DNA of 64,000 nt from an uncultured Lachnospiraceae bacterium. Its GTDB lineage: Bacteria > Bacillota > Clostridia > Lachnospirales > Lachnospiraceae. Shown here piece by piece: positions 9,598-23,975 of the stretch (within the stretch, counting starts at the first letter, position 1; each line of letters opens with the position of its first letter). The notes under the pieces were generated by a model. That model had not been told where the DNA came from. It was given only the letters and a program-made list of their open reading frames with translations, and searched no databases. Made by a program: the position numbers and the translations under genes. Location of the stretch: NCBI GenBank assembly GCA_947629385.1, contig CANRDO010000001.1:107535-171534 (forward strand), written 5' to 3'.

Positions 9598-10539
9598 ATG
9601 GAATACATCAAGGGAGTCACCTTTGCGGCGTTTGCGCCGCGGGGCGCGCTTTCAAAGGCCTGCGCCGGAGAAAGCCTGGAAGATCTTGCGAGGCGCACCG
9701 GGGCGAACATGATCATGCTGGTTCCGGCTGCCATGCAGGAGACGGCGCAGTCGGAAAAGATCGATTTTCATTCGGACGCCACAATGTCGGACGACGAGCT
9801 GAAAAGAACTATCGACCACGCGCAAAGACTTGGGCTTTGGGTGGCGCTGAAGCCCACCGTGAACTGCATCAACGGAACCTGGCGGGCGCATATCAATTTC
9901 TTTGATGAGGATGTCCCGTGCGAGCCGAAGTGGAGCAACTGGTTTGCTTCCTATACGGATTTCCAGCTCCATTTCGCGAAGATCGCGCAGGAGAGCGGCT
10001 GCAAAATGTTCCTGCCAGGATGCGAGATGGTTCAGAGCCAGCGCAGGGAAAAGGAATGGCGCGCTCTGCTGGGCGAGCTGCGGGGCGTATTCCACGGCTT
10101 GCTGTCCTACAATACGGATAAGTATCAGGAGCATAACGTCAGCTGGTGGGACGCGGTGGACGTGATCTCCTCCAGCGGCTATTATCCGCTCGAGGACTGG
10201 GAAAGGCAGCTGGATCGGATTGAGCCGGTGGTGAAAAAGTACGGAAAACCCTTCTTTTTCGCGGAGTGCGGCTGTATGTCTGTGGAGGGTTCCTCGCGGG
10301 TGCCGAACGACTGGGGCTTTGCGGGCGGCGTCTCTTTGGAGGAGCAGGCGAACTGGTATAGGGCTATGTTCACCGCCTGCAAAAAGCGCGACTGGGTAGA
10401 AGGCTTTGCGCTCTGGGACTGGAGCTGGCAGCTGTATCCGCTCGCGGACGCTCTGAACAATAAAGGATATGACATATACGGAAAGCCGGCGGAGCAGGTG
10501 GTGGCGCAATTTTATCAGAATCCGGATTCTTTCTGCTGA
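9598..10539 (+). CDS. clan GH-A (beta/alpha)8 glycosidase, GH113-like beta-mannanase/mannosidase (no signal peptide)
   Basis: 313 aa. KPTVNCINGTWRAHINFFDEDVPCEPKW, candidate acid/base motif LPGCEMV and candidate nucleophile motif FFFAECGC. Sits in a mannan-locus context. The family assignment is from memory of GH113 sequences. Confidence 0.6.
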   Translation: MEYIKGVTFAAFAPRGALSKACAGESLEDLARRTGANMIMLVPAAMQETAQSEKIDFHSDATMSDDELKRTIDHAQRLGLWVALKPTVNCINGTWRAHINFFDEDVPCEPKWSNWFASYTDFQLHFAKIAQESGCKMFLPGCEMVQSQRREKEWRALLGELRGVFHGLLSYNTDKYQEHNVSWWDAVDVISSSGYYPLEDWERQLDRIEPVVKKYGKPFFFAECGCMSVEGSSRVPNDWGFAGGVSLEEQANWYRAMFTACKKRDWVEGFALWDWSWQLYPLADALNNKGYDIYGKPAEQVVAQFYQNPDSFC

Positions 10540-10629
10540 ACGGTTCACTTTTAAAATTTTAAGCTTGGAATGGCATACGAAAGATGTTAATATTACAGAA
10601 AATGCCAGAAAGAGAGGTAAGCTTAAGTT

Positions 10630-11799
10630 ATGTTGGTTCAGGAAGTAAAAGAACATTTGACACAAAAACTCATTCCGTTCTGGAAGGGCATGAGGGACGA
10701 CGAACAAGGCGGATATTACGGCTATATGGGCTATGACCGGGCGATCGACAAAAAGGCCGTCAAGGGCTGTATCCTGAATAGCAGGATCCTGTGGTTTTTC
10801 TCGAACGCGGCGCTGCTTCTGAAGGATGATTCGGTGAAGGCTGAGGCGGATCACGCGTACGCTTTTCTGCGCGATTCTTTTGTGGACCGGGAGAACGGCG
10901 GCGTGTACTGGTCCGTCACCTATGACGGGAAAGTGGAAGAAGGGATGAAGCACACCTACTGTCAGGCGTTCGCGATCTACGGGCTCTCCTCCTACTACAG
11001 ACTCACGAAAAACGAGGAAGCTCTCTCGCTGGCGAAAGAGCTTTTTGCGGTGATCGAGGAGAAATGTACGGATCCGCTCGGTTATCTGGAGGCGTTCTCG
11101 CAGGATTTTCAGCCGGTGGACAATGAGAAGCTTTCCGAGAACGGCGTGATGGCGGAGAAGACGATGAACACGCTTTTGCATGTGTTCGAGGCCTACACGG
11201 AGCTCTACGACGTCTCGCGCGACGAGGCGGTGGGGGAGCGGCTGCGCCATATCCTGCGCCTGTTCGCTGACCGGGTCTACAATCCGTCGAAGCGCCGTCT
11301 GGAGGTGTTCTTTGACAAGGAGTGGAACACGCTGATCGACCTTCACTCCTTCGGACACGACGTCGAGTCGGCGTGGCTGATCGACCGGGGCTGCGATGTG
11401 CTGGGCGATGAGGCGCTTTCCGAGGAGATGCGGAAGATCACAAGAACGCTGACGGAATGTGTTTACGAGGAGGCGTACCGCAGCCATTCGCTCGCGAACG
11501 AGTGCGAGAACGGCAAGGTCGATACCACCCGCGTCTGGTGGGTGCAGGCGGAGGCGATCGTCGGATTCACGAACGCGTGGCAGCAGGACCCGTCCGGGCT
11601 GAAGTACATGCAGGCGGCCGAGGACATCTGGGGATTTGTGAAGGAGTACTTTGTGGACAAGAGAGAAGGCTCCGAGTGGTTCCGCGATCTGAAGGAGAAC
11701 GGAGAGATCACGGAGGAGGAGCCGATCGTGGATCCGTGGAAGTGCCCGTACCACAACGGCCGTATGTGCATGGAGGTCATCAAAAGACTGTCCAGATAA
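10630..11799 (+). CDS. AGE-family epimerase (cellobiose/mannobiose 2-epimerase-like)
   Basis: 389 aa. LIPFWKGMRDDEQGGYYGYM..., ILNSRILWFFS, WWVQAEAIVGF and PWKCPYHNGRMC are typical of N-acylglucosamine/cellobiose 2-epimerases. Confidence 0.8.
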   Translation: MLVQEVKEHLTQKLIPFWKGMRDDEQGGYYGYMGYDRAIDKKAVKGCILNSRILWFFSNAALLLKDDSVKAEADHAYAFLRDSFVDRENGGVYWSVTYDGKVEEGMKHTYCQAFAIYGLSSYYRLTKNEEALSLAKELFAVIEEKCTDPLGYLEAFSQDFQPVDNEKLSENGVMAEKTMNTLLHVFEAYTELYDVSRDEAVGERLRHILRLFADRVYNPSKRRLEVFFDKEWNTLIDLHSFGHDVESAWLIDRGCDVLGDEALSEEMRKITRTLTECVYEEAYRSHSLANECENGKVDTTRVWWVQAEAIVGFTNAWQQDPSGLKYMQAAEDIWGFVKEYFVDKREGSEWFRDLKENGEITEEEPIVDPWKCPYHNGRMCMEVIKRLSR

Positions 11800-11906
11800 C
11801 GTTTGACCGGGATGCTGACATCGAAGGTATTTAAGCTGCAGAGCGGACGGAATTTGCCTGCGAGCGGTGAGAAGAATAAAATAAATTCAGATGCGAGGTA
11901 GAAAAA

Positions 11907-13040
11907 ATGCTGGTAAGACCTGATCATGAATACCTGCAGTACAGCGGCAGGATCGACGACACGAACCCCGGCGCGTACATGTTCATTTATCCGGCGACGC
12001 TGGTGAACATCCGCTTTCGGGGCACAAAGATCAGCGTGTATCTGGAAAATCAAAGGCAATACTGGGGTAATTACATGGGAGTTCTTCTGGACGGCGTGCA
12101 GAGTACGCTTTGTCTCTCGAAAGGAGAGGACGACGTGCAGGGCGATCCGGTCGAGGCTTCACCGGAGATGGCGGCCTGCCTTTTGGGAGGTGCGGCCTGC
12201 GGGTGCTCGGGTGTGAGACGCTTCGTGCTGGCGGAGGATCTGGAAGATACCGAGCACAGCCTGACATTTTTCAAGCGGCAGGACTCCTGCAACATGGTAC
12301 TCTTTCATGGTTTTGAACTGCCGGAGGGATCGGAGGTTCTGCCTCCGGTGCCGAAGCCGGAGCGCAGGATCGAGGTCTACGGTGATTCCGTGTCTGCGGG
12401 CGAGGTGTCCGAAGCGGTGGAGTACACCGGGAAGCCGGATCCGGAACACAACGGCGAGTATTCCAATGTCTGGTATTCTTATGCGTGGATGACTGCGCGC
12501 AAGCTGAACGCTGAGCTTCACGACATCGCGCAGGGCGGGATCGCGCTGCTCGATCGGACGGGGTATTTCAACGCGCCGGAGCTTACCGGTATGGAGCATG
12601 TGTGGGACAAGATGCAGTTCAATCCTGCGTTCGGCGAGGTGACGGACTGGGATTTCAGCCGCTATACGCCGCAGGTGGTCGTCGTCGCGATCGGGCAGAA
12701 CGACAATCACCCGGAGGATTACATGAAGGATGATTTCCAGGGGGAAAAAGCAGCTGTCTGGAAAAGGCACTACAAAATGCTGATTGAAAATATCCGAGGG
12801 AAGTACCCGCAGGCGCTGATCGTCCTCGCCACGACCATTCTGGAGCACGACAGGGGTTGGGACGACGCCATCGACGAAGTCTGCGAGGCGCTCGGCGACG
12901 ACAGGATCGTGCATTTCCTCTATAAGAGAAACGGCTGCGGGACGCCGGGACATATCCGCATCGGCGAGGCGGAGGAGATGTCGGACGAGCTGGCGGCGTT
13001 TATCGAGGAGCAGGCGAAGCGCAAGGGCTGCTTTGCCTGA
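11907..13040 (+). CDS. SGNH/GDSL hydrolase with N-terminal beta-sandwich, CE2-like acetyl(manno)oligosaccharide esterase
   Basis: 377 aa. Block I VYGDSVSAGE, block III AIGQNDN. About 150 aa of N-terminal domain, as in CE2 enzymes. Confidence 0.65.
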   Translation: MLVRPDHEYLQYSGRIDDTNPGAYMFIYPATLVNIRFRGTKISVYLENQRQYWGNYMGVLLDGVQSTLCLSKGEDDVQGDPVEASPEMAACLLGGAACGCSGVRRFVLAEDLEDTEHSLTFFKRQDSCNMVLFHGFELPEGSEVLPPVPKPERRIEVYGDSVSAGEVSEAVEYTGKPDPEHNGEYSNVWYSYAWMTARKLNAELHDIAQGGIALLDRTGYFNAPELTGMEHVWDKMQFNPAFGEVTDWDFSRYTPQVVVVAIGQNDNHPEDYMKDDFQGEKAAVWKRHYKMLIENIRGKYPQALIVLATTILEHDRGWDDAIDEVCEALGDDRIVHFLYKRNGCGTPGHIRIGEAEEMSDELAAFIEEQAKRKGCFA

Positions 13041-13063: not shown

Positions 13064-14071
13064 ATGGGAGAGGAGAGAAAACAGCGCGCGGTGACGCAGA
13101 CGGATATTGCCCGCGAGCTGAACGTCAGTGTGGTGAGCGTGTCCATCGCCCTGAACGGACGAAAAGGCGTCAGCGCGGAGCTTCGCCAGAAAATCCTCGA
13201 CGCTGCGGAGGAGATGGGATACGAGGGGGCGGTGGGACAGCCTCAGAAGAAGGACGCCATGATCCGGATCGGGGTGCTGATCTCCAGGCGATATCTGAGG
13301 TATACGCCGTCCTTTTACATGAACGTCTACCAGGAGATCGTGATCGCGGCGCTGGAAAAGAAGAGCATGACATTTCTGGAAATATTGGATCCGGAGGACG
13401 AGGAGAGCCTGAAGCTGCCGAAGCTGCTGGACGACCAGGTGAACGGAATTCTGGTGCTCGGGGAGCTGAGTCACGCCTATACGGAGGCGATACAGAACGA
13501 AAGCAGGGTTCCGGTTATTTTTGTGGACTACTACCAGCCGATTGGGGATGCCGATTTTATCATCAGCGACGGTTATGCGGGGGCATATCGGCTGACGAGG
13601 ATGATGCTGGAGGCCGGTTATCGGAAGATTGCTTTTGTGGGAACACTCCAGGCGACGTCCAGCATCCGGGATCGTTTTTTCGGATATCGGAAAGCGCTGA
13701 TGGAAAACCGGAGCGAACCCCGGCCGGATTGGATCATTCCGGATCGGATCGCGTTCGACGCGGATATTTTTATGAATCTGCCGGAGGAGATGCCGGAGGC
13801 GTTTTTCTGCAACTGCGATGTGACGGCGGCTTTTCTCATCGAGAAGCTTCGTCAGAACGGTTATCGGGTGCCGGAGGACGTTGGCGTGGCGGGCTTCGAC
13901 CATTTCTATATGAATAAGATCGATGGCATTGAGCTGACTACGTACGACGTCAATATAGAAGCGATGGCCAGGATCAGTGTGAATATGCTTCTGCGGAAGA
14001 TCAACCAGACGCATTTCGTGTCCCGCATGAGCGTCGTCACCGGAAAGATCATACGAGGGAACAGCTTCTAG
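13064..14071 (+). CDS. LacI family transcriptional regulator
   Basis: HTH VTQTDIARELNVSVVSVSIALNG plus a periplasmic-binding-protein fold. Confidence 0.85.
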   Translation: MGEERKQRAVTQTDIARELNVSVVSVSIALNGRKGVSAELRQKILDAAEEMGYEGAVGQPQKKDAMIRIGVLISRRYLRYTPSFYMNVYQEIVIAALEKKSMTFLEILDPEDEESLKLPKLLDDQVNGILVLGELSHAYTEAIQNESRVPVIFVDYYQPIGDADFIISDGYAGAYRLTRMMLEAGYRKIAFVGTLQATSSIRDRFFGYRKALMENRSEPRPDWIIPDRIAFDADIFMNLPEEMPEAFFCNCDVTAAFLIEKLRQNGYRVPEDVGVAGFDHFYMNKIDGIELTTYDVNIEAMARISVNMLLRKINQTHFVSRMSVVTGKIIRGNSF

Positions 14072-14087
14072 GAGAAAAGGAAACAAA

Positions 14088-15131
14088 ATGGAGAACAGCA
14101 CGGAAAAGAACGTTACCTTGAAAGATATCGCAGAGGCGATGCAGGTCAGCATCGTGACGGTGTCGAACGCGCTGGCCGGCCGCAGCGGAGTGGGCGAAGG
14201 GCTGCGCATGGAGATCGAGAAAAAGGCGCAGGAGATGGGTTACCGCAGGAAAACGCGCAGGGAAAAAAGACCTTCTTCCAAAAGCAGGGTATACCGGGCG
14301 GGGATGAGGATCGGCGTGACTGTGGAGGGCAAAATTCTAAAGAAATACACGTCCTTCTACTGGGAAATGTACCAGCGGGTCGTCGTGGCCGCGTCCGCGC
14401 TGGGCTGCTTTGTCTCGCTCGAGGTTCTGACGGACGAGCAGGAGCGGCGGCAGGAAATGCCCCTGTTGGTGGGCGACGAGGGGATAGGCGGACTGATCAT
14501 CCTTGGAATGCCGGAAAAGGCGTATCTGAGAAAGTTGTGCCAGACGGCAGTATGCCCGGTTCTTTTTCTTGATTTCGTTGACGACGAGCTGCCGTGCGAC
14601 GCGGTTATCTCAAATGGCTTTCACGGAATGTATCAGATGACAAATTATCTGATCGATCTGGGCCATACCGAGATTGGATTCATCGGAAACTATCTTGCGA
14701 CGGGCAGCATCATGGATCGCTATCAGGGATTCTGCAAATCCCTATTGGAGCATGGGATCAGCGAGAACAGGGAATGGATCCTGTCGGATCGGGATCCGGC
14801 GACGGGAAAGGTAGGGATTCGGCTTCCGGATCGCCTGCCGACCGCTTTTGTCTGCAACTGTGATTTTACCGCAGGAATGGCAGCGGAACTTCTTGCCGAG
14901 GCAGGATATCGGATTCCGGAGGACATTTCGCTTGTCGGGTTCGACGATTTCCTGGTGGGCGGGAGCCTGCAGGGAAAGCTGACGACCTACGCCGTGGACA
15001 TGGACGCGATGGCGCACCAGGGGTTGAAGCTGCTGCTCAGAAGGATCAATGAAGGGGCGCAGGAACGGACGGTACGCATGGTCGATGGTAAAATGGTGAT
15101 CCGGCAGAGCGCGAGACGGCTTGAGAAATGA
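14088..15131 (+). CDS. LacI family transcriptional regulator (second, tandem)
   Basis: HTH VTLKDIAEAMQVSIVTVSNALAG plus a sugar-binding fold. Confidence 0.85.
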   Translation: MENSTEKNVTLKDIAEAMQVSIVTVSNALAGRSGVGEGLRMEIEKKAQEMGYRRKTRREKRPSSKSRVYRAGMRIGVTVEGKILKKYTSFYWEMYQRVVVAASALGCFVSLEVLTDEQERRQEMPLLVGDEGIGGLIILGMPEKAYLRKLCQTAVCPVLFLDFVDDELPCDAVISNGFHGMYQMTNYLIDLGHTEIGFIGNYLATGSIMDRYQGFCKSLLEHGISENREWILSDRDPATGKVGIRLPDRLPTAFVCNCDFTAGMAAELLAEAGYRIPEDISLVGFDDFLVGGSLQGKLTTYAVDMDAMAHQGLKLLLRRINEGAQERTVRMVDGKMVIRQSARRLEK

Positions 15132-15154: not shown

Positions 15155-16111
15155 ATGCAGACTACAGTAAATCCAAACGCGACAAAAGAAGCCAGAGAGC
15201 TTCTGAATTATCTCTCGGACATAGCAGGGAAGAAGATCATCACGGGACAGCACACGCAGACGAACCCGATGGAGGAAGCGCGGTACATTCTCGAAAAGAC
15301 GGGAAAGCTGCCGAAGCTGTTCGGCTTTGAGCTGCTGGCCTATTCTCCGAACATCAACTACGACGACGCGTCCGAGGAATGCCTGACAGAGATTTATGAG
15401 GACAGAGGCACGCTGGACACGGCCATGAAGCTGGCGAAAAATTCCGACGTGATCCTCACGTTCACCTTCCACTGGTACTCGCCGCTCGGGGGCAGGGACA
15501 AGAGCTTCTATGCCGAGCACACGGATTTTGACGCGTCGAAGGTCCTCGTTGAGGGAACCCCGGAGCGGGCCGCCTTTTATCACGACATGGACGCCATCGC
15601 GGAGCACCTGAAGAAATTCCGGGATGAGAAGATTCCGATTCTCTGGAGACCGTTCCACGAGTCGGACGGACAGTGGTTCTGGTGGGGCGCGAAGGGACCG
15701 GAGGTCGCGCGGGAACTCTATAAGCTGATGTTCCAATATTATACGGAGCACCATCATCTCGACAATCTGCTCTGGGTGTGGAACTGCCCGCTCGCCGAGG
15801 GCTATCCGGGGGACGAGTATGTCGATGTGATATCGATGGACATCTATCTGACCGAATACGCGCCGACGGATTATTCGAAGGAGTATGAAAGGTTGATCGC
15901 GCAGACCACAGACAAGAAAGTCGCAGCGCTCGCGGAGATCGGCTACCTTCCGGATATCAGGATGCTGGAGCAGTCGCACACGCCTTGGGCGTACTACATG
16001 ACCTGGTCCCACGAGTTCTGCATCGGGGAGAAGTTCAACAAGACCGACGCGCTGAAGGCGATCTACGAGAGCGAGTATGCGGTCACGTCGGACCTGGAGC
16101 GGCTGCCGTAA
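15155..16111 (+). CDS. GH26 beta-mannanase (intracellular, no signal peptide)
   Basis: WRPFHESDGQWFWWGAKG is the GH26 signature around the acid/base Glu. I prefer ATG 15155 (preceded by GGAG) over ATG 15128. Confidence 0.8.
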   Translation: MQTTVNPNATKEARELLNYLSDIAGKKIITGQHTQTNPMEEARYILEKTGKLPKLFGFELLAYSPNINYDDASEECLTEIYEDRGTLDTAMKLAKNSDVILTFTFHWYSPLGGRDKSFYAEHTDFDASKVLVEGTPERAAFYHDMDAIAEHLKKFRDEKIPILWRPFHESDGQWFWWGAKGPEVARELYKLMFQYYTEHHHLDNLLWVWNCPLAEGYPGDEYVDVISMDIYLTEYAPTDYSKEYERLIAQTTDKKVAALAEIGYLPDIRMLEQSHTPWAYYMTWSHEFCIGEKFNKTDALKAIYESEYAVTSDLERLP

Positions 16112-16363
16112 GCTGTTATGGAGTGGTTGCCGCAGATTGCGGAGTGACCGCCGCAGGCTATGGAGCGGCTGTATGCCACGCAAACAAATTTCAGAAAGAA
16201 GTCAAGATGACTATTTTGCGAGACAGGCTCTTAAAGTATGGATTCCATATTTTTGGGAGTCTGTTTTTTGAAAAAACGCTTAAAAGGAAATACGTATGGC
16301 TTGTCTTGTTTTATGACGTATGATATGATGTGATAAGAATTAAGGTAGAGAGAGGAAAAAAAG

Positions 16364-17464
16364 TTGAATAATAAATCTCAGTTAAAAGAAATAAAGATTT
16401 GCGGATATAAATCTTTAGGGACGGATATACGGCCAATCGAATTGGAGCTGAATGATTTAAATATTGTAATAGGAGCAAATGGCGCCGGAAAAAGTAATTT
16501 TATCTCTTTTTTTAGGATGCTTTCAAATATAATGACAGGTGCACTGCAAGTCTATGTTGGAAAAAACGGATCGGCGGAGTCTTTGTTGCAGTTTGGGTCA
16601 AAAAAAACGAAGATGATTTCCGCAAGTTTGAAGTTTAGAAACAAGAAATTTACTGATACCTACGAGTTTTCTCTGGTGAAAGCAGTCAATGATACACTGA
16701 TTTTTGCGGAGGAAACGATCATTACCGATAAGCAAAAATTTGAACTGCACAGCGGGCAAAAGGAAAGCTTTTTACTGACAGAAGAAGCATCTCATAAAAG
16801 TGAGCGTGCTGTTCGTGCGATACTTTCCGGCTGCAAGACGTTTCAATTTCATGACACATCACCAGAAGCGCACATTAGAAATGCCGCGTATCTGGACAAT
16901 AATCGCTTTTTGATGAGTGACGGTGGGAACGTTGCGGCATATTTATATATGCTCAAACTGAAATATGGGCAATACTATGATCGGATTGTGGAACATGTTC
17001 GATATGTAATGCCGACTTTTCAGGATTTCTTGCTCGAGCCGCAAACTTTGAATCCCCAATGGATCAAACTTCAATGGTTCGAAAAAGGAAACAGTGAATA
17101 TGTGTTTGGACCAGAGCACTTTTCAGATGGCACGCTGCGGTTTATTGCCTTAGCAACGTTGCTTTTGCAGCCTCCGGATCTTTTGCCACAGGTGATATTT
17201 ATAGATGAGCCGGAATTGGGACTTCATCCGCAGGCGGTAGACGTATTGGCATCTATGGTACAAAAGGCAAGAGAATATACACAGGTGATTATGGCAACAC
17301 AGTCCCCAAGACTAGTGGATAATTTTGAGTGCAGGGATATTATTGTAGCAGAAAGGGACAGGGAGACGGGAAACACAACATTAAAACGTTTGGAGGAAGA
17401 TGATTTGAAGATTTGGCTTGAAGATTACAGCCTTTCTCAGATTTGGGAGAAGAATATACTCTAA
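16364..17464 (+). CDS. soluble ABC-type / OLD-like AAA ATPase (AAA_15/AAA_21-like)
   Basis: 366 aa. Walker A GANGAGKSN, signature-like SDGTLRF, Walker B/D-loop IFIDEPELGLHP, H-loop region MATQSP. No TM segments. TTG start after GAGAGG. Confidence 0.8.
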   Translation: MNNKSQLKEIKICGYKSLGTDIRPIELELNDLNIVIGANGAGKSNFISFFRMLSNIMTGALQVYVGKNGSAESLLQFGSKKTKMISASLKFRNKKFTDTYEFSLVKAVNDTLIFAEETIITDKQKFELHSGQKESFLLTEEASHKSERAVRAILSGCKTFQFHDTSPEAHIRNAAYLDNNRFLMSDGGNVAAYLYMLKLKYGQYYDRIVEHVRYVMPTFQDFLLEPQTLNPQWIKLQWFEKGNSEYVFGPEHFSDGTLRFIALATLLLQPPDLLPQVIFIDEPELGLHPQAVDVLASMVQKAREYTQVIMATQSPRLVDNFECRDIIVAERDRETGNTTLKRLEEDDLKIWLEDYSLSQIWEKNIL

Positions 17465-18045
17465 TTCCTAACACGGTTATTACAAGTACTGACAGAAAGC
17501 ATGGAAGGATATATAAAGGTGGAGTGGTAAATTATGAGCAAATTAGAAATACGATGCTGAAAACATTGGCTGTTGCATCAAAAAATAGAGATTCTTATGT
17601 GACGACGATGTTTGATTTTTATAAGTTGCCGGCAGATGTACCCGGAGTTGCTGATATTGAAAAAATAAATGATCCGTATGAAAAAGTGAGACATATAGAG
17701 AGACAAATACAGAAAGCAGAGGAATACGGGGAAGGTTTCTTTTTTCCATACATTGAATTGCATGAGTTTGAAGCAATGATTTTCTCTGATTTATCAAAAC
17801 TGAAGGAGACATATTTTGAATATGATCTTGAAGCGTTGGAAGAATGTGTTAAAGAGCAAAATAATCCGGAATTAATTAACAGCGGAATAGAAACTGCACC
17901 TTCAAAACGGATCATTAATTGTATTGACTGTTATGATAAGGCAAATGTAGGAGTAGATGTGCTTGCAAAAATCGGAGTCCAAAACATAGCAGAAAAATGT
18001 CATCATTTTTCAGAATGGCTAAAGCGTATTGAAGGGAAACTTTGA
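17443..18045 (+). CDS. DUF4276-like protein (apparently N-terminally truncated)
   Basis: 200 aa. YVTTMFDFYKLP, FFPYIELHEFEAMIFSD, TAPSKRII and KCHHFSEWLKRIE match my recollection of DUF4276. TTG start overlaps the ATPase gene by 22 nt. The frame opens only at 17422. Confidence 0.6.
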   Translation: MGEEYTLIPNTVITSTDRKHGRIYKGGVVNYEQIRNTMLKTLAVASKNRDSYVTTMFDFYKLPADVPGVADIEKINDPYEKVRHIERQIQKAEEYGEGFFFPYIELHEFEAMIFSDLSKLKETYFEYDLEALEECVKEQNNPELINSGIETAPSKRIINCIDCYDKANVGVDVLAKIGVQNIAEKCHHFSEWLKRIEGKL

Positions 18046-18208
18046 CTTCTCCGTCGGAAAGCATATGAAAGCTATGATATACTATTAATCATACTGACAA
18101 CTGCTTCGCAGCAACGCTCATTTACTGTACAAGTATGCCGCGAACGGGGGAATACAGATTGCCTGAGTTTTTCGTGACAGATGAAATTTTGTCGCTAATT
18201 AGGAGTAG

Positions 18209-18244
18209 GAGAGGGCATTGTGCGTGACACCCTCTCTTTTTTTT
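18209..18244 (+). terminator. rho-independent terminator after the ATPase/DUF4276 pair
   Basis: gagaggg (18209-18215) pairs with ccctctc (18230-18236), followed by T8. Confidence 0.7.
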
Positions 18245-18273
18245 GCTGTGTTATAGGTGATGAGAATAAGTGC

Positions 18274-18513
18274 CTATCGTAACAGCTCATCAACAGTAAT
18301 ATCCAGTACTTGGGAAATAATCTTCAATTCGATATCTGTGACAAATCTTTTGCCGGCTTCAATCCGTTGCACAGCGTTCTTGTCGATGTCAAGGCCGGCA
18401 ATCTGGAGACGGTCGGCAAGCGCGCGTTGCGATATTTTCAGATTGGATCGTAAAACAGCGATTTTTTCGCCGCATAAATTGTTTTTTCCATCACTCGTCT
18501 TATTTATGAACAT
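18274..18513 (-). CDS. XRE-family helix-turn-helix transcriptional regulator
   Basis: LRSNLKISQRALADRLQIAGLDIDKNAVQRIEAGKRFVTDIEL. ATG at 18513 lies 7 nt after GGGGG. The longer 97-aa ORF start is rejected. Confidence 0.8.
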   Translation of the reverse strand: MFINKTSDGKNNLCGEKIAVLRSNLKISQRALADRLQIAGLDIDKNAVQRIEAGKRFVTDIELKIISQVLDITVDELLR

Positions 18514-18792
18514 AAAATAACCCCCTTGGTAATTATCTGCATAAACAGTATAAAAAGTATATTGCAAAGGTTGTGTAGTTGCAAAACATATAGTAAAATT
18601 ATAAAAAAATTCGTAGCTGAGTTGTTAAAAAGTTGAAGCCCGGACTTGCAGTATATTTTTATCGGTCAGATGAAAAAGCCGATAAAAGTACGGATAAAGT
18701 ATGGATAATAATTCTGAAGGACGGTATACCGTGCCATTCGGAAGCAGTTGAACTCGGGAGATACGAAGTAGTGGAAAGGGCTTTTGAAACAT

Positions 18793-19498
18793 ATGATAAA
18801 AGGCTGGAGAGATTTATTCAGAACACATATATTGGAACGCGGGTTGGATTATTATGAGAGCCGTGCCATTAAGTCGCTGAAACAGACGGAAAAGGGATAT
18901 GAGGCGACGGTGGAGGGAACGGAAGAATATCATGTTGAGATAGAAATCAGTGACAATAGAATATATGATATGTTCTGCGACTGTCCATACGCGGAGGATG
19001 GAAATTACTGTAAGCATATGGCGGCTGTTCTTTATGAGATTACGGAAGGACAAGCTGAATCGACAGAAAGTACGTTGGATAAGCATTGAAGATTTTCTTC
19101 TAAACGAGTTTCAAGATTCGGATCTGCTAAAGCAAAGATTGAAAATGCTGGATAAGCTGATAGAGAAAGCTGGAAACGATACGGATGTCGGCAGCTGGTA
19201 TTCTGCGTATTACGGCTATGAGGATATCGTCCTGAAGCGTCTGCAGATCATGCAAAAGCTTGGATGCAGTGAACAGGAGATTTGGGAGTACAGGCAGAAA
19301 TTCAGACACTTTTCTGCTATCCGTAAGATGGAGATCGAGGAATATCTGGATAGGAATGACTATGAGAAAGCAATAGAAGTATTGCAGGAGAGCAAGAAGC
19401 TGGACCAGAAATATCCGGGGCTGGTCGCGGAATACAGCCGCCGATTGATAGAAATTTATAAGGGGATCGGACGGACTGACGCATATAAAACGGAGTAG
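18793..19498 (+). pseudogene. SWIM zinc-finger protein, frameshifted
   Basis: Frame A (to 19089) carries the SWIM CxCx(n)CxH motif (FCDCPYAEDGNYCKHMAAVLYE) and stops at DKH*. The reading continues in another frame (ORF 18950-19498, ...ISIEDFLLNEFQDSDLL...). Confidence 0.55.
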
Positions 19499-19513
19499 GT
19501 ATAAAGGCAGGAG

Positions 19514-20087
19514 GTGAGGGGATTGAAGGGAAATCTAAGCTCTGCGGATTATGAAATCATGCATGGGTCTGACATGGTGGCCAGAATAAGTCGCACAGGC
19601 AAAGCAATCGTGTATAAAGAAAAATTTCTGCCCTATGATCTTTATCTGGAGGAAAGACAGGACATTGATGATCTGGTCAATAATCTGCTCAACTTCTATC
19701 AATCATGACTTGAATACAGTGGACGAGTGCATACGGATCGACAAAAAGACGTATTACGGGATGAATATCATTGACTATCTGGTCGGAAATACAGACAGAC
19801 ATCCGGAAAACTGGGGATTCCTGGTCGACAATAGGACAAATGACTATATCTCCCTTTATCCGTTGATGGATTTTAATCAGAGTTTTTACAGCTATGAGAC
19901 GATTGATGGCGCGAATTGCCAGACGGTCTATCCCAAAAGAATGACACAGAGAGAAGCGGCGGAAGAGGCAGTCAGACAGATCGGGCTGAATCAGATACAG
20001 GAAGTGGATCCGGCGATTTTCGGAAATGAAGATGAGTGGAGAGAAATGTTCTCTAAAAGGCTTGATGTGCTGAGGCAAGCTGTTTAA
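19514..20087 (+). pseudogene. HipA-like kinase remnant (frameshifted and internally deleted)
   Basis: ORF 19514-19708 and ORF 19635-20087 lie in different frames. The latter has the HipA_C catalytic-loop-like motif YLVGNTDRHPENWGF. The total length is far shorter than a full HipA. Confidence 0.5.
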
Positions 20088-20100
20088 TTTTATATCCGGC

Positions 20101-20149
20101 TTGACATCAGGATAAGTTTATGATATATTCTCAGCACACACTGTGCTGA
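20101..20149 (+). promoter_or_regulatory. promoter of the TetR gene with an overlapping palindromic operator
   Basis: TTGACA (20101-20106), 17-nt spacer, TATATT (20124-20129). The palindrome tcagcaca-cac-tgtgctga (20131-20149) lies directly downstream. Confidence 0.65.
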
Positions 20150-20163
20150 AAGGGAGTGAAGAC

Positions 20164-20745
20164 ATGCCGGAGAGCGAACCGCTTATTCACGATGAGATGA
20201 GCGGCAGGATCGTGGACGAGGCGGCCAGGCTCGCCATGAGCGAAGGGGCAGGGGATGTCACAGTGCGGAAGATCATCCGGGCGCTGAATGTGACGAACAG
20301 AGTTTTTTACAACCGCTTTCACAATGTGGAGGAGGTACTTGCTCTCGTCTATCGGGATATGGCTGTCAGAATGCGCCAGAGCATTGTGGACCGTTTTGAT
20401 CCGGAGGGGGATTTTTTCGGGCAGATCACGGACATTGCCGCAGGAACGCTGACGCTCTCGTATAAGTTGAAGTCCGGCATGAACCAGTATGTCTTTGCTC
20501 AGGACAGTACGTCGCAGGAGAATTACCGCTGGTGGCAGGAGCGGATCTGCGGGCTTATCGAACTTGGCAAGAGCCGCGGCATTGCCAGAGCGGATCTGGA
20601 TTCCGAAACGATGAGCTATGCCATCTGGTGCTTTATCCGGGGCTACAATGCGGATGCGCTCGCAAGGGAATTGCCTGAGGAGGAAGCCGTGCGCGGTTTC
20701 CGCTATGCCTTTGGCATATTTCTGGACGGAATGAAGATAAAATAA
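20164..20745 (+). CDS. TetR/AcrR family transcriptional regulator (candidate fab regulator)
   Basis: HTH region VTVRKIIRALNVTNRVFYNRFHNVEEVL. ATG 20164 follows AAGGGAG. The gene sits immediately upstream of the fab operon. Confidence 0.8.
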   Translation: MPESEPLIHDEMSGRIVDEAARLAMSEGAGDVTVRKIIRALNVTNRVFYNRFHNVEEVLALVYRDMAVRMRQSIVDRFDPEGDFFGQITDIAAGTLTLSYKLKSGMNQYVFAQDSTSQENYRWWQERICGLIELGKSRGIARADLDSETMSYAIWCFIRGYNADALARELPEEEAVRGFRYAFGIFLDGMKIK

Positions 20746-20785
20746 ATGCAGGCAGCGTCGCTGTGCGGCGCCTTGTTTTAGCCAT

Positions 20786-20816
20786 TCTCAGCACACAGTG
20801 TGCTGAGAGAGATAAT
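20786..20816 (+). promoter_or_regulatory. second copy of the palindromic operator, abutting a -10-like GATAAT upstream of acpP
   Basis: tctcagcacac-a-gtgtgctgaga (20786-20808) has perfect 11-bp arms. GATAAT is at 20811-20816. No T-tract follows. Confidence 0.55.
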
Positions 20817-20959
20817 GAAGAAAGCATGATAATAATAGTTTCACCATAATTTGTGCCGCTGCCTGAAGAGCGGAGGAATATGGAAGTCAGATGGGTAATT
20901 CCTTACTTTATGAAGGAATATTAGCCATAAATTATTATTGCGGAAAAGAGGAGAACATT

Positions 20960-22143: not shown

Positions 22144-23064
22144 ATGTGTAAAACAGTGTTTTTGTTCCCGGGTCAGGGAGCGCAATATGCCGGCATGGCC
22201 CGGAAATTTTACGATTCGTATGGGGTCAGCCGCGCGGTGTTTGAAAAGGCGTCAAAGTTGAGCGGATATTCCATGGAAAAGCTATGTTTTACCGAGAATT
22301 CCCGTCTGGATGAGACGAGGTACACGCAGCCCGCGCTTCTGACGGCGTGCTGTGCGATCCTGGCGGCGGTGCGCAGCGAAGGGATACAGGCGGAAGCCAC
22401 AGCAGGGCTGAGCCTGGGTGAATACTGTGCGCTGACAGCGGCAGGCACTTTTGAATTTGAAGATGCGCTGCGCACGGTGTGCGAAAGAGGTTCCTACATG
22501 CAGGAGGCTGTCCCGGAAGGTCAGGGAATGATGGCTGCCGTGCTGAGCCGCAGACCGGTTCCTGTGGAGGAGATCTGCGAAAGCGTCCCCGGGATCGTCG
22601 CGGTCGCAAACGATAACTGTCCGGGGCAGAAGGTAATCTCCGGTGAGACGGAGGCGGTGAAAACAGCGGCGCAGAAGCTGCTGGAAGCGGGCGCGGCCCG
22701 CGTGGTCCCGCTGAAGGTGAGCGGCCCGTTCCATTCTCCCATGCTGAAAGAAGCAGGGGAAAAGCTGAAAGGGGTTCTGGAGCAGGTTCCGCTGAAAATG
22801 CCGGAGCTGACCTTCGTATCGAACGTGACGGCCCGTGCGGAGAGGGATCCGGAACACATAAAGGGACTTCTGGCCCGACAGGTCTGCTCTTCCGTGCTGT
22901 GGAGGCAGAGTATGGAATATCTGATCTCTGAGGGCGCGGATACGTTTATCGAGATCGGACCGGGAAAGACGCTGTGCGGTTTCCTGAAAAAGATCAACCG
23001 CACGGCGCGGTCGTTTTCCGTGGAGACGCCGGAGGATCTGGCGCAGGTAAAGCAGATGCTGTGA
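22144..23064 (+). CDS. fabD: malonyl-CoA:ACP transacylase
   Basis: FPGQGAQYAGM, GLSLGEYCAL, VSGPFHSP. Confidence 0.92.
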   Translation: MCKTVFLFPGQGAQYAGMARKFYDSYGVSRAVFEKASKLSGYSMEKLCFTENSRLDETRYTQPALLTACCAILAAVRSEGIQAEATAGLSLGEYCALTAAGTFEFEDALRTVCERGSYMQEAVPEGQGMMAAVLSRRPVPVEEICESVPGIVAVANDNCPGQKVISGETEAVKTAAQKLLEAGAARVVPLKVSGPFHSPMLKEAGEKLKGVLEQVPLKMPELTFVSNVTARAERDPEHIKGLLARQVCSSVLWRQSMEYLISEGADTFIEIGPGKTLCGFLKKINRTARSFSVETPEDLAQVKQML

Positions 23065-23134
23065 AGCAGGATCTCATGCCGGAAACTTGCGGGAAGCACT
23101 CCGCTAGACCTCGGAAAGACAGGAAAGAGGTGCT

Positions 23135-23254
23135 GGAAGGAAAGATAATGGAAGGAAAGATAATGGAAGGAAAGATAATGGAAGGAAAGATAGTGGAAGG
23201 AAAGATGCCGGAAGGAAGGATATCGGAAGAAAAGATGCTGGAAGGAAAAATAGC
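23135..23254 (+). repeat. eight tandem 15-bp units (GGAAGGAAAGATAAT-like) spanning the fabG ribosome-binding site and start codon
   Basis: Units start at 23135, 23150, 23165, 23180, 23195, 23210, 23225 and 23240. Units 1-3 are identical and the later ones diverge. The array reads in frame as MEGKI MEGKI MEGKI VEGKM PEGRI SEEKM LEGKI. Confidence 0.9.
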
Positions 23255-23975
23255 GCTTGTTACCGGCGGAGGACGCGGAATCGGGCGGGAGGTCGCGCTG
23301 ACGCTGGCACGTCTGGGCGCGGATGTGGCGGTAAATTACAGCGGTTCGGAAGATGCGGCCAGGAGAACAGCACAGGAGATCCGTGATCTGGGAAGACAGG
23401 CTATCGCGGTTCGCGCGGATGTATCAGATGCGGCGCAGTGCGAAGCGATGTTCCGGGACATGGAGCGGCAGCTCGGGAGCATCGACATTCTGGTCAACAA
23501 TGCGGGCATCACCAGAGATAATCTGGCTGTGCGCATGAGCGAGGAAGAATTTGACCGGGTGATCGAGACGAACCTGAAGGGAGCGTTTCTGTGCATGAAG
23601 CTGGCGGGAAAACGCATGATCAAAAAACGTTCCGGCAGGATCGTCAGCATCTCGTCGATCTCGGGGGTGCATGGGAATCCCGGACAGATCAATTACTGCG
23701 CGTCAAAGGCAGGCGTGATCGGTATGACAAAGTGTCTGGCGAAGGAACTGGCCGGCCGCAATGTTACAGTGAACGCGGTCGCGCCCGGCTATATCGACAC
23801 AGACATGACGGCGGTCTTGTCGGACAGTGTAAAGGATGCCATACTTGCGCAGATTCCATTGAAACGGATGGGGAACCCGCAGGATGTAGCGCGGACGGTT
23901 GCTTTTCTTGCCTCGGACTACGCGGGCTACATCACGGGGCAGACGATTCTGGTAGATGGAGGAATGGGAATTTGA
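23235..23975 (+). CDS. fabG: 3-oxoacyl-ACP reductase
   Basis: MLEGKIALVTGGGRGIG..., NNAG and YCASKAG. At 246 aa this is the canonical length. In-frame ATG/GTG alternatives lie at 23148, 23163, 23178, 23193 and 23205. Confidence 0.85.
   Translation: MLEGKIALVTGGGRGIGREVALTLARLGADVAVNYSGSEDAARRTAQEIRDLGRQAIAVRADVSDAAQCEAMFRDMERQLGSIDILVNNAGITRDNLAVRMSEEEFDRVIETNLKGAFLCMKLAGKRMIKKRSGRIVSISSISGVHGNPGQINYCASKAGVIGMTKCLAKELAGRNVTVNAVAPGYIDTDMTAVLSDSVKDAILAQIPLKRMGNPQDVARTVAFLASDYAGYITGQTILVDGGMGI

Follow-up and report, generated by a model that had tools for sequence, protein, structure and literature searches.

The gene pair at positions 16364-18045 of the 64,000-nucleotide stretch of DNA analysed here (the window) is very probably a copy of the two-gene HEC-01 module that has been inactivated recently, in a horizontally acquired, low-GC and variable islet of a Lachnospiraceae genome. 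Judged by sequence, the combination of a soluble ABC ATPase and a DUF4276 protein corresponds to the already catalogued candidate anti-phage system HEC-01. The locus descends from such a module, yet it is not an intact member of the system, a deletion of 107 bp having removed the junction between the two genes.

The pair consists of ORF1 (16364-17464, 366 aa) and ORF2 (17443-18045, 200 aa), both on the plus strand, both called with a TTG start and overlapping by 22 nt as called. A motif search of ORF1 located a Walker A motif (GANGAGKS, 16472-16495), a signature-like SDGTLR (17123-17140), a Walker B/D-loop (IFIDEPELGLHP, 17195-17230) and an H-loop-like MATQSP (17291-17308), while ORF2 was found to contain YVTTMFDFYKLP (17596-17631), FFPYIELHEFEAMIFSD (17740-17790) and TAPSKRI (17893-17913), all on the plus strand. 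These ORFs and motifs had been quoted in a preliminary description of the locus and all were confirmed, as was its Pfam forecast: ORF1 matches AAA_21 (3.2e-26) and AAA_15 (9.4e-11), and ORF2 matches DUF4276 (PF14103, 3e-36), although over profile positions 24-192 of 192 only. Against the PADLOC models, ORF1 matched HEC-01A (PDLC04175) with an E-value of 7.7e-131, residues 4-366 aligning to profile positions 3-358 of 363, and ORF2 matched HEC-01B (PDLC04188) with an E-value of 2.4e-56 over positions 47-225 of 230, leaving positions 1-46 unmatched. Other PADLOC matches of ORF1 were to mad3, AriA, AbiLi, Old, GajA, PtuA and ATPase-Toprim_I-B, and its closest relatives in the PDB were the ATPase of the retron Eco8 OLD nuclease, AriA and the OLD-family nuclease 6p74. 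The architectural class is that of a soluble OLD/AriA-like ABC ATPase beside a small partner; an ABC/OLD-type assignment had been made earlier and agrees with the matches to the AriA, AbiLi, Old, GajA and PtuA models.

The same preliminary description considered an ATPase paired with DUF4276 to be an uncharacterised system, a view that was not upheld, as the PADLOC search leads to HEC-01 and two experimental tests exist in the literature. HEC-01 (Hma-embedded candidate 01, PADLOC-DB v2) was discovered embedded in Hma (helicase-methylase-ATPase) defence systems, and no protection was obtained from it in that work (Payne et al., 2024; bioRxiv 10.1101/2024.01.29.577857). A cold-seep study reports that E. 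coli B carrying a HEC-01 representative was protected from one or more of the phages T4, T5 and T7. Publications on MADS, Menshen and PARIS have likewise already discussed the ATPase and DUF4276 domains.

The lesion was identified by DNA alignment with approximately 94–95% identical DNA in two relatives, L001 and L009 (the latter being the Lachnospiraceae MAG Lapin-007__bin20), in comparison with which the window is missing 107 bp at 17458/17459 (in BLAST coordinates, 105 absent bases and a 2-nt overlap at the junction). The deletion takes the last five codons and the stop codon of the ATPase gene, the intergenic base and codons 1 to ~30 of the DUF4276 gene, and with these the ribosome-binding site, the start codon and the nearly invariant TEGxSETNFV motif of the effector are gone. 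The locus had been put forward as a candidate anti-phage module, and it is on these losses that the proposal fails for the local copy.

What is left of the effector gene is a 5'-truncated DUF4276/HEC-01B remnant (17461-18045, plus strand), equivalent to approximately residues 31-224 of a 224-aa protein according to the Pfam and PADLOC matches and the homologue alignment. DUF4276 homologues are almost all 224 aa in length, with ~29 N-terminal residues more than ORF2, and when P0003 was used in a tblastn search only its residues 31-224 aligned to the window. No intact HEC-01B was found elsewhere in the window by tblastn of its whole length; what lies immediately downstream of the ATPase gene is a truncated homologue and not a complete HEC-01B. 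In the homologue alignment, the invariant residues E9, G10, E13, F16 and V17 and the nearly invariant V7, T8 and T14 are absent from the window copy. Across 44 homologues E9 and E13 never vary, and both fall within the deleted segment, which leaves the effector's conserved set of metal-binding acidic residues incomplete; the equivalents of D82, E132 and E134 are kept, within YVTTMFDFY and HEFEA. The DUF4276 gene of the window is probably a pseudogene. The 22-nt overlap and the TTG "start" of ORF2 are ORF-calling artefacts due to the deletion junction; the overlap reported previously does exist as called, but it is a by-product of the deletion and not a coupled-gene design. The pair illustrates that mechanical ORF calls spanning a deletion can look like translationally coupled genes.

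The HEC-01A-type ATPase gene (AAA_21; 16364-17464, plus strand) is essentially intact. Relative to L009, its ancestral ATG has been mutated to AAG, with a TTG start used instead, and its five C-terminal codons (IGGQP) have been replaced through the deletion by L and a stop codon. In the sister genome L009 the pair occupies the equivalent chromosomal position, flanked by GH26 on the upstream side and by XRE on the downstream side, and co-linearity with the window reaches window position 18526. Its junction is intact and its DUF4276 gene has a TAC to TAG stop, a knock-out which is independent of the deletion in the window. The dN/dS between the window and L009 was found to be 0.105 for ORF1 and 0.115 for ORF2, both from small counts (11.5 synonymous and 5.5 non-synonymous differences for ORF2), and most of the divergence has therefore accumulated under constraint.

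The G+C content of the pair is 38.4% (40.3% for ORF1 and 34.7% for ORF2) and that of the surrounding islet (16112-20100) is 40.5%, compared with 54–57% in the islet flanks and 54.5% for the whole window. The contrast noted in the preliminary description is real, but smaller than the 33–38% within ~60% it had given. A promoter-like site (TTGTCT, a 17 nt spacer and TATGAT with an upstream TG; 16301-16329, plus strand), which is a consensus match only (9/12), lies ~35 nt before ORF1 in a region conserved in L009. RNA folding indicated a hairpin at ~18200-18245 (-17.3 kcal/mol, z = -2.2) followed by T8, the whole feature occupying 18200-18252 on the plus strand, where the DUF4276 and XRE genes converge, and this is probably a terminator. 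The strong terminator previously placed at 18209-18244 stands as a folding hairpin with T8, but a consensus terminator scan of 16000-20300 returned no match, because the loop exceeds the limit of the scan.

Downstream of the hairpin, and convergent with the pair, is an XRE/HTH_3 gene (18274-18567, minus strand; Pfam HTH_3 8.7e-07) encoding 79-97 aa depending on the start, a homologue of which adjoins the pair in L009 (at 9905-10144). It is followed by a series of decayed genes (18784-20087, plus strand), where overlapping ORFs in shifting frames comprise a SWIM zinc-finger fragment (Pfam 9.4e-08), a TPR-like ORF read in a different frame and HipA_C-like kinase fragments divided between two frames (Pfam 2.1e-04), with PADLOC matches to positions 20-98 of 566 of PDC-S62 and to positions ~130-190 of ~293 of PDC-M03A. 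An XRE regulator and toxin-like remnants are thus neighbours of the pair, as had been described, and the islet (16.1-20.1 kb) resembles a small graveyard of conflict genes, holding the truncated HEC-01B together with SWIM/PDC-S62-like and HipA-like fragments. With regard to signs of a mobile element, no tRNA gene was found in the whole window and no convincing direct repeats were found around the islet.

In the literature, DUF4276 is described as belonging to the Toprim superfamily and as related to Mad4 of MADS (PMC12065111), and HEC-01B is placed in Toprim on account of a conserved metal site that it shares with the BpOLD Toprim (bioRxiv 10.1101/2024.01.29.577857). An AlphaFold model of an intact homologue, P0001 (pLDDT 91.8), has the order beta1 (2-8), alpha1, beta2, alpha, beta3 (75-82), alpha, beta4, where invariant E9 follows beta1, D82 ends beta3 and E132/E134 follow beta4. 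This order is compatible with Toprim (a beta2-beta1-beta3-beta4 sheet, Glu after beta1 and an acidic motif after beta3), and beta1, the first and central strand of the sheet in the model, is the part missing from the window copy. A Foldseek comparison with OLD/AriB Toprim folds had been proposed earlier and gave no significant Toprim or nuclease match: searching the PDB and BFVD with full-length P0001 returned nothing at E <= 0.001, and the top 50 contained no structure of a Toprim, OLD or AriB protein, the best full-length resemblance being to a phage RloB-like protein (TM 0.45, E 0.28, not significant). A model of the N-terminal 140 residues (pLDDT 81) likewise had no match in the PDB at this threshold and no Toprim structure in its top 50, its hits being generic alpha/beta folds (REC, Arf and Rossmann-like). 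A profile of the DUF4276 alignment found nothing relevant among PDB sequences, its sole match being a spurious one to a DNA ligase (E 0.015), and Pfam searches of 44 homologues at E <= 5 gave no Toprim, RloB or DUF4435 signal. A weak PIN_4 match on three of these homologues (0.015) was treated as noise. The putative Toprim assignment of DUF4276 accordingly draws on the literature, the modelled topology and the conserved acidic residues, with no confirmation from structure searches.

By analogy with OLD, Gabija, PARIS and AbiL, an intact module would combine an OLD/AriA-like soluble ABC ATPase (HEC-01A), acting as sensor and scaffold, with a 224-aa DUF4276 protein (HEC-01B); the ATPase would hold or license this metal-dependent Toprim-like nuclease, which would cleave nucleic acid in response to a phage or mobile-element trigger. 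Such a sensing-and-release mechanism is put forward for HEC-01 entirely by analogy. In the window, the deletion has deprived the effector of the central strand beta1 and of the invariant Glu9/Gly10/Glu13 of TEGxSE, and the ATPase frame now meets a stop codon at once. The effector would then be dead and the module non-functional, leaving an almost intact orphan ATPase with its ATG changed to AAG.

The association of the two genes extends well beyond this locus. An ORF1-like ATPase gene was found directly upstream, on the same strand, at 77 of the 80 genome loci of DUF4276 homologues, and two of the three unpaired loci sit at contig ends. Homologous pairs occur in many bacterial phyla and in methanogenic archaea, with a patchy distribution and scattered contexts, and the pair is present on 13 plasmids; a search of 50,697 phage records turned up no homologue. 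The immediate neighbours of the 77 pairs (124 proteins) include DEAD (5), ResIII (4), Methylase_S (2) and mad5 (2), but are otherwise heterogeneous and mostly housekeeping genes. The guilt-by-association check suggested in the preliminary description, performed as a plain tally over the two immediate neighbours of each of the 77 pairs and not as an enrichment statistic, showed no dominant defence partner. Some close relatives do adjoin HEPN, RloB/AAA_21, OLD-like, BrxC/PglY and PAPS_reduct/DUF4007 genes. The Foldseek and neighbour tests are too weak to overturn the published Toprim assignment.

It could be argued from these data that the HEC-01 family is not primarily anti-phage, but a selfish module of addiction or stabilisation, or else a nuclease accessory to restriction-modification-like systems, hitch-hiking on mobile DNA. 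The negative result of Payne et al., the housekeeping neighbours, the plasmid copies, the patchy and scattered occurrence that takes in archaea, and the frequency of lesions (8 of 80 representative genome loci) are all consistent with this. However, phage protection by a HEC-01 representative was obtained in one study, the family was discovered inside Hma defence systems, some of its close relatives lie beside the genes of defence type listed above, and its ATPase is closest to known defence ATPases; a primary role other than an anti-phage one is considered unlikely.

The lesions in homologous pairs were also examined for a bias between the two genes. At L089 the DUF4276 start has been lost, and at L092 and L093 the DUF4276 gene is frameshifted, with the ATPase intact in each. 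Effector-only lesions outnumber ATPase-only lesions by 5 to 2 among the 80 representative genomes, despite the 1.65-fold greater length of the ATPase gene; this bias is not significant (one-sided binomial p ~0.08, calculated by hand from gene lengths). Two further loci, L042 and L024, were flagged at first as damaged and were found to be intact on inspection. That the decay is informatively asymmetric, the effector being repeatedly lost (by the 107-bp deletion and by a nonsense codon) while a full-length ATPase stays under purifying selection, is a tentative suggestion and probably not correct. If it were true in an unbiased census, HEC-01A may hold a toxic HEC-01B effector in check, on a toxin/antitoxin logic like that of PARIS; alternatively, an orphan HEC-01A may have a function of its own, such as neutralising incoming homologous effectors.

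A related explanation is that the orphan ATPase has been kept because it is useful alone, for example as an antitoxin-like restraint or decoy against incoming related Toprim effectors, or that losing the effector first is the only safe route of decay. The independent loss of DUF4276 in two sister lineages, with a full-length ATPase at a dN/dS of 0.105, points in this direction, as do the three loci with an intact ATPase and a damaged DUF4276 gene, the excess of effector-only lesions in the shorter gene and the deposition of AriA in the PDB as "AriA antitoxin". That excess is not significant, however, the additional close-clade cases are biased in that they were chosen for short DUF4276 proteins, some of the lesions in MAGs may be sequencing errors, and the ATPase of the window has itself lost its ATG start. 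The explanation is therefore judged to be rather improbable.

A still-working module, in which a shortened DUF4276 protein translated from the internal TTG at 17443 or ATG at 17554 acts with the ATPase, is very unlikely. ORF2 does remain open for 200 codons, its dN/dS against L009 is low and the truncated allele persists in several samples. However, a low dN/dS is equally expected after recent inactivation and here derives from few differences, and in L009, the genome compared, the DUF4276 gene is interrupted by a stop codon of its own. The product would moreover be without three invariant residues (E9, G10, E13) and without the first strand, which is central in the sheet, and no Shine-Dalgarno-like motif was seen by eye before 17443 or 17554. 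Finally, the window seems to be a metagenome-type assembly with MAGs as its closest matches, but that the deletion is an assembly or sequencing artefact in a genome with an intact pair is scarcely credible, as the same truncated allele, encoding the exact 366-aa ATPase product ending in EKNIL, occurs in identical gene order on 9 contigs that come from six or more samples (independent ENA and Logan assemblies), and is therefore no assembly error, and L003 and the window share 99.99% identity across 12.2 kb.

As a recently inactivated HEC-01 locus, the window copy is unable to work as a two-gene system and is an ordinary decaying remnant with little discovery value. It is intact homologues, for example L010 or L001, that are reasonable experimental targets. 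The islet and the knocked-out sister allele together illustrate the fast turnover of defence modules in gut Lachnospiraceae.

Among known systems, HEC-01 itself is the closest, since both window proteins match its models best and the gene order, strand and layout of an ABC ATPase with a DUF4276/Toprim-like protein are the same. Unlike HEC-01, the local HEC-01B has neither its first ~30 codons nor a proper start, and the local pair lies outside any Hma system, between GH26 glycosidase and XRE genes, its neighbours being GH26, LacI regulators, XRE and the SWIM/HipA fragments. Most of the 77 homologous pairs are likewise not beside helicase or methylase genes, and Hma embedding is the route by which HEC-01 was discovered and not a strict requirement.

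Mad3-Mad4 of MADS similarly pairs an AAA15/21 ABC ATPase with a DUF4276-type protein, a combination designated MADS3-4 and grouped with ABC ATPase plus Toprim systems in a phylogeny of PARIS (PMC11464382). ORF1 matches PADLOC mad3 (6e-28) and NCBIfam antiphage_MADS3 (7.5e-29), but its antiphage_MADS3 score of 101 bits, against a cut-off of 420, means that it is no Mad3 equivalog. Neither ORF2 nor intact P0001 matched the mad4 model, and no mad model besides mad3 was matched by the six islet ORFs scanned (16364-20087). In the AbiL/OLD family, ORF1 matches AbiLi (7.7e-23), Old (3.2e-18) and GajA (7.6e-14), and the structure of the retron Eco8 OLD nuclease is matched at 2.9e-06; in OLD and GajA, however, ATPase and Toprim domain form one protein, whereas the HEC-01 partner has a gene of its own. 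As regards RloB-type pairs, the RloB-like protein mentioned above is the best full-length resemblance of the DUF4276 model, below significance.

PARIS shares with HEC-01 a gene for a soluble ABC ATPase followed by one for a small Toprim-class effector, and ORF1 matches the AriA model at 2.4e-26 and the AriA structures 8ux9 and 8v45 at 4.8e-4. The two differ in that the HEC-01 effector is DUF4276 and not DUF4435 (ORF2 and P0001 have no AriB/DUF4435 match) and in the length of the ATPase (366-371 aa compared with 464 aa for AriA), and the HEC-01 family is not known to cleave tRNA. By analogy, PARIS is the best mechanistic template for HEC-01, with an ATPase scaffold that holds a nuclease and releases it on a trigger.

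Two ORFs were found on the plus strand, at 16364-17464 (ORF1, 366 aa) and 17443-18045 (ORF2, 200 aa), with an apparent overlap of 22 nt. The motifs quoted for them in the preliminary description were all present and the predicted families were confirmed by Pfam, with matches of ORF1 to AAA_21 (3.2e-26) and AAA_15 (9.4e-11) and of ORF2 to DUF4276 (3e-36). The pair had been proposed as an uncharacterised conflict module belonging to the class of ATPases with a small nuclease-like partner. The class is sound; however, the system has already been catalogued and experimentally tested. In PADLOC-DB, ORF1 matches HEC-01A over the whole profile (E 7.7e-131) and ORF2 matches HEC-01B (E 2.4e-56), and the pair is thus the known system HEC-01. 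Payne et al. listed it among their 'Hma-embedded candidates', describing an ABC ATPase whose TOPRIM-like partner has a metal-binding site in common with BpOLD, and saw no protection by HEC-01 in their assays (bioRxiv 10.1101/2024.01.29.577857). A cold-seep metagenome study tested a randomly picked representative of HEC-01 in E. coli B and reports protection from one or more of the phages T4, T5 and T7.

The ORF2 alignments begin at profile position 24 (Pfam) and 47 (PADLOC). Among 2,426 relatives retrieved from 5.8 billion proteins, those of the close clade were almost all 224 aa in length, and alignment to homologues indicated that ORF2 is without the first ~29 residues (MKKIFVVTEGQSETNFVNRVMxPYFAxRC). 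DNA alignment against metagenomic contig L001 (~95% identical) and a sister genome (L009) revealed a clean break at 17458/17459, where 107 bp are missing from the window. Lost with them are the ATPase stop codon and the five codons before it (IGGQP), the one base separating the two genes, and DUF4276 codons 1 to about 30, start codon included. As the length of this gap is not divisible by three, the ATPase now meets TAA one codon past the junction (ending ...EKNIL), and the 22-nt overlap exists only because the first TTG of the DUF4276 frame falls inside the ATPase gene. The genes and families first described stand, but the integrity of the cassette does not, the overlap being a by-product of a chance in-frame TTG after the 107-bp loss. 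By eye, neither this TTG (17443) nor the earliest ATG in frame (17554) is preceded by a Shine-Dalgarno-like motif. A second, subtler sign of erosion is found in the surviving ATPase gene, where the ancestral ATG is now AAG (16361-16366, compared with L009 7880-7888), leaving the following TTG as the only remaining start. No second copy of ORF1 or ORF2 occurs elsewhere in the window. As the DUF4276 copy has lost three invariant residues and its first, central strand, it is best read as a pseudogene, whatever its exact fold, and we infer that the local HEC-01 copy is non-functional.

The deletion is genuine and recent. Nine contigs, drawn from six or more samples, encode precisely this 366-aa truncated-allele ATPase amid the same neighbours, and L003 shares 99.99% identity with the window over 12.2 kb. 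In the nearest named genome identified by genome scan, the uncultured Lachnospiraceae MAG Lapin-007__bin20 (L009), the pair occupies the corresponding chromosomal position, with GH26 on its upstream and XRE on its downstream side, and is ~94% identical at the nucleotide level. L009 retains an undamaged junction and a 371-aa ATPase, but a TAC to TAG nonsense codon lies ~120 codons into DUF4276, an inactivation independent of the window deletion. Comparison of the window with L009 gave dN/dS values, from small counts, of 0.105 (ATPase) and 0.115 (DUF4276 remnant); most divergence therefore arose under constraint on both genes, and the knock-outs are young.

The G+C content of the pair is 38.4%, compared with 40.5% for the surrounding islet (16112-20100) and 54–57% for its flanks, a contrast which is genuine although weaker than earlier hand counts. 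The reported strong terminator corresponds to a hairpin followed by T8 at ~18200-18252, which folds as RNA at -17.3 kcal/mol (z -2.2) but received no call in a consensus terminator scan. The XRE regulator and toxin-like remnants adjoining the pair were recovered as a minus-strand XRE/HTH_3 gene downstream (Pfam), then fragments within 18784-20087. These comprise a SWIM zinc-finger ORF that aligns to just 20-98 of the 566 positions in the PDC-S62 model, a TPR-like ORF overlapping it in another frame, and HipA_C/PDC-M03A-like kinase pieces split over two frames. They are further decayed conflict-type genes of the same low-GC islet, and the pattern recurs in other samples (L004-L007). Beyond the common XRE gene, L009 (10157-19671) and the window (18527 onward) carry wholly different DNA, that of L009 holding a 682-aa ORF (10222-12270), a 409-aa ORF (13117-14346) with a GPNGGGKSN P-loop motif, and small ORFs. 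This difference suggests a variable hotspot lying between the GH26 gene and the fab operon.

Near this operon, a near-perfect palindrome with a TCAGCACACAGTGTGCTGA core is present in two copies that are 90% identical. The first (20127-20155) overlaps the start of a 200-aa ORF (20143-20745) that is TetR-like by eye, and the second (20784-20812) lies ~80 nt upstream of a 100-aa ORF at 20891, which with the next three ORFs resembles acpP, fabK, fabD and fabG by eye. The palindrome looks like a putative operator of the TetR-like regulator, positioned so that the protein could act on its own gene and on the fatty-acid synthesis operon. A 15-nt tandem repeat (TGGAAGGAAAGATAA; 7.9 copies, 85% matches) at 23134-23252 is located just upstream or at the 5' end of an ORF, FabG-like by eye (22974-23975), and would read as (K/M)EGKI repeats if the extended ORF were translated.

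Among representative genomes, an ORF1-like ATPase gene immediately precedes DUF4276 in the same orientation at 77 of 80 loci, with two of the three others at contig ends, and the two genes are an obligate pair. Hosts include Lachnospiraceae, Treponema, Fibrobacter, Bacteroidales, Chloroflexota, Cyanobacteria, Myxococcota, Acidobacteriota and methanogenic archaea; 13 plasmids carry the pair, and a search of a phage collection found it in no record. Adjoining proteins are heterogeneous (DEAD 5, ResIII 4, Methylase_S 2 and mad5 2 among 124), with some close relatives in defence-island contexts (HEPN, RloB/AAA_21, an OLD-like gene, BrxC/PglY, PAPS_reduct/DUF4007). One such contig (L091, 5041-7186) has NTP_transf_2/HEPN pairs, a transposase, an AAA_21 and RloB pair and an OLD-like gene, and another (L092, 3001-8193) has HEPN, ParB_N, PAPS_reduct with DUF4007, and a BrxC/PglY N-terminal gene. 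Lesions were detected at 8 of the 80 loci (effector only in five, ATPase only in two, both in one), and an effector bias relative to gene length did not reach significance (p about 0.08). Further effector-damaged relatives (L089, L092, L093) were chosen for short products and are hence a biased sample. It is quite improbable that effector-first decay with ATPase retention reflects a toxin/restraint logic or an independent role of orphan ATPases. Elsewhere (L024, 1935-2681), an otherwise intact DUF4276 homologue reads TERQTE in place of the invariant TEGQTE, and this Gly10 to Arg change may represent a naturally inactivated or divergent active site.

The AlphaFold model of an intact DUF4276 homologue (P0001, pLDDT 91.8) runs beta1 (2-8), alpha1, beta2, hairpin, alpha2, beta3 (75-82), helices, a short beta4 and a C-terminal helical bundle. 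Invariant E9, G10 and E13 follow beta1, D82 lies at the end of beta3, and E132 and E134 follow beta4; the modelled layout and acidic residues are compatible with the published Toprim description. The structure comparison proposed earlier did not confirm this fold and gave no Toprim structure among the 50 best hits; Foldseek against PDB and BFVD returned nothing at E <= 0.001 for either the full or the N-terminal 140-residue model, the sole full-length resemblance being a phage RloB-like protein (TM 0.45, E 0.28). Sequence profiles likewise matched nothing in PDB and none of the Pfam Toprim families. By analogy with PARIS, OLD and Gabija, we slightly favour a mechanism in which the ATPase of intact HEC-01 modules would detect a signal from a phage or mobile element and would then license a metal-dependent DUF4276 nuclease. 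The Menshen paper (PMC12065111) assigned DUF4276 to the Toprim superfamily and tied it to Mad4 of MADS, and the PARIS paper (PMC11464382) grouped 'MADS3-4' with the ABC ATPase and Toprim systems. The pair in the window is related to MADS3-4, and its ATPase most closely resembles the retron Eco8 OLD nuclease, AriA and an OLD-family enzyme.
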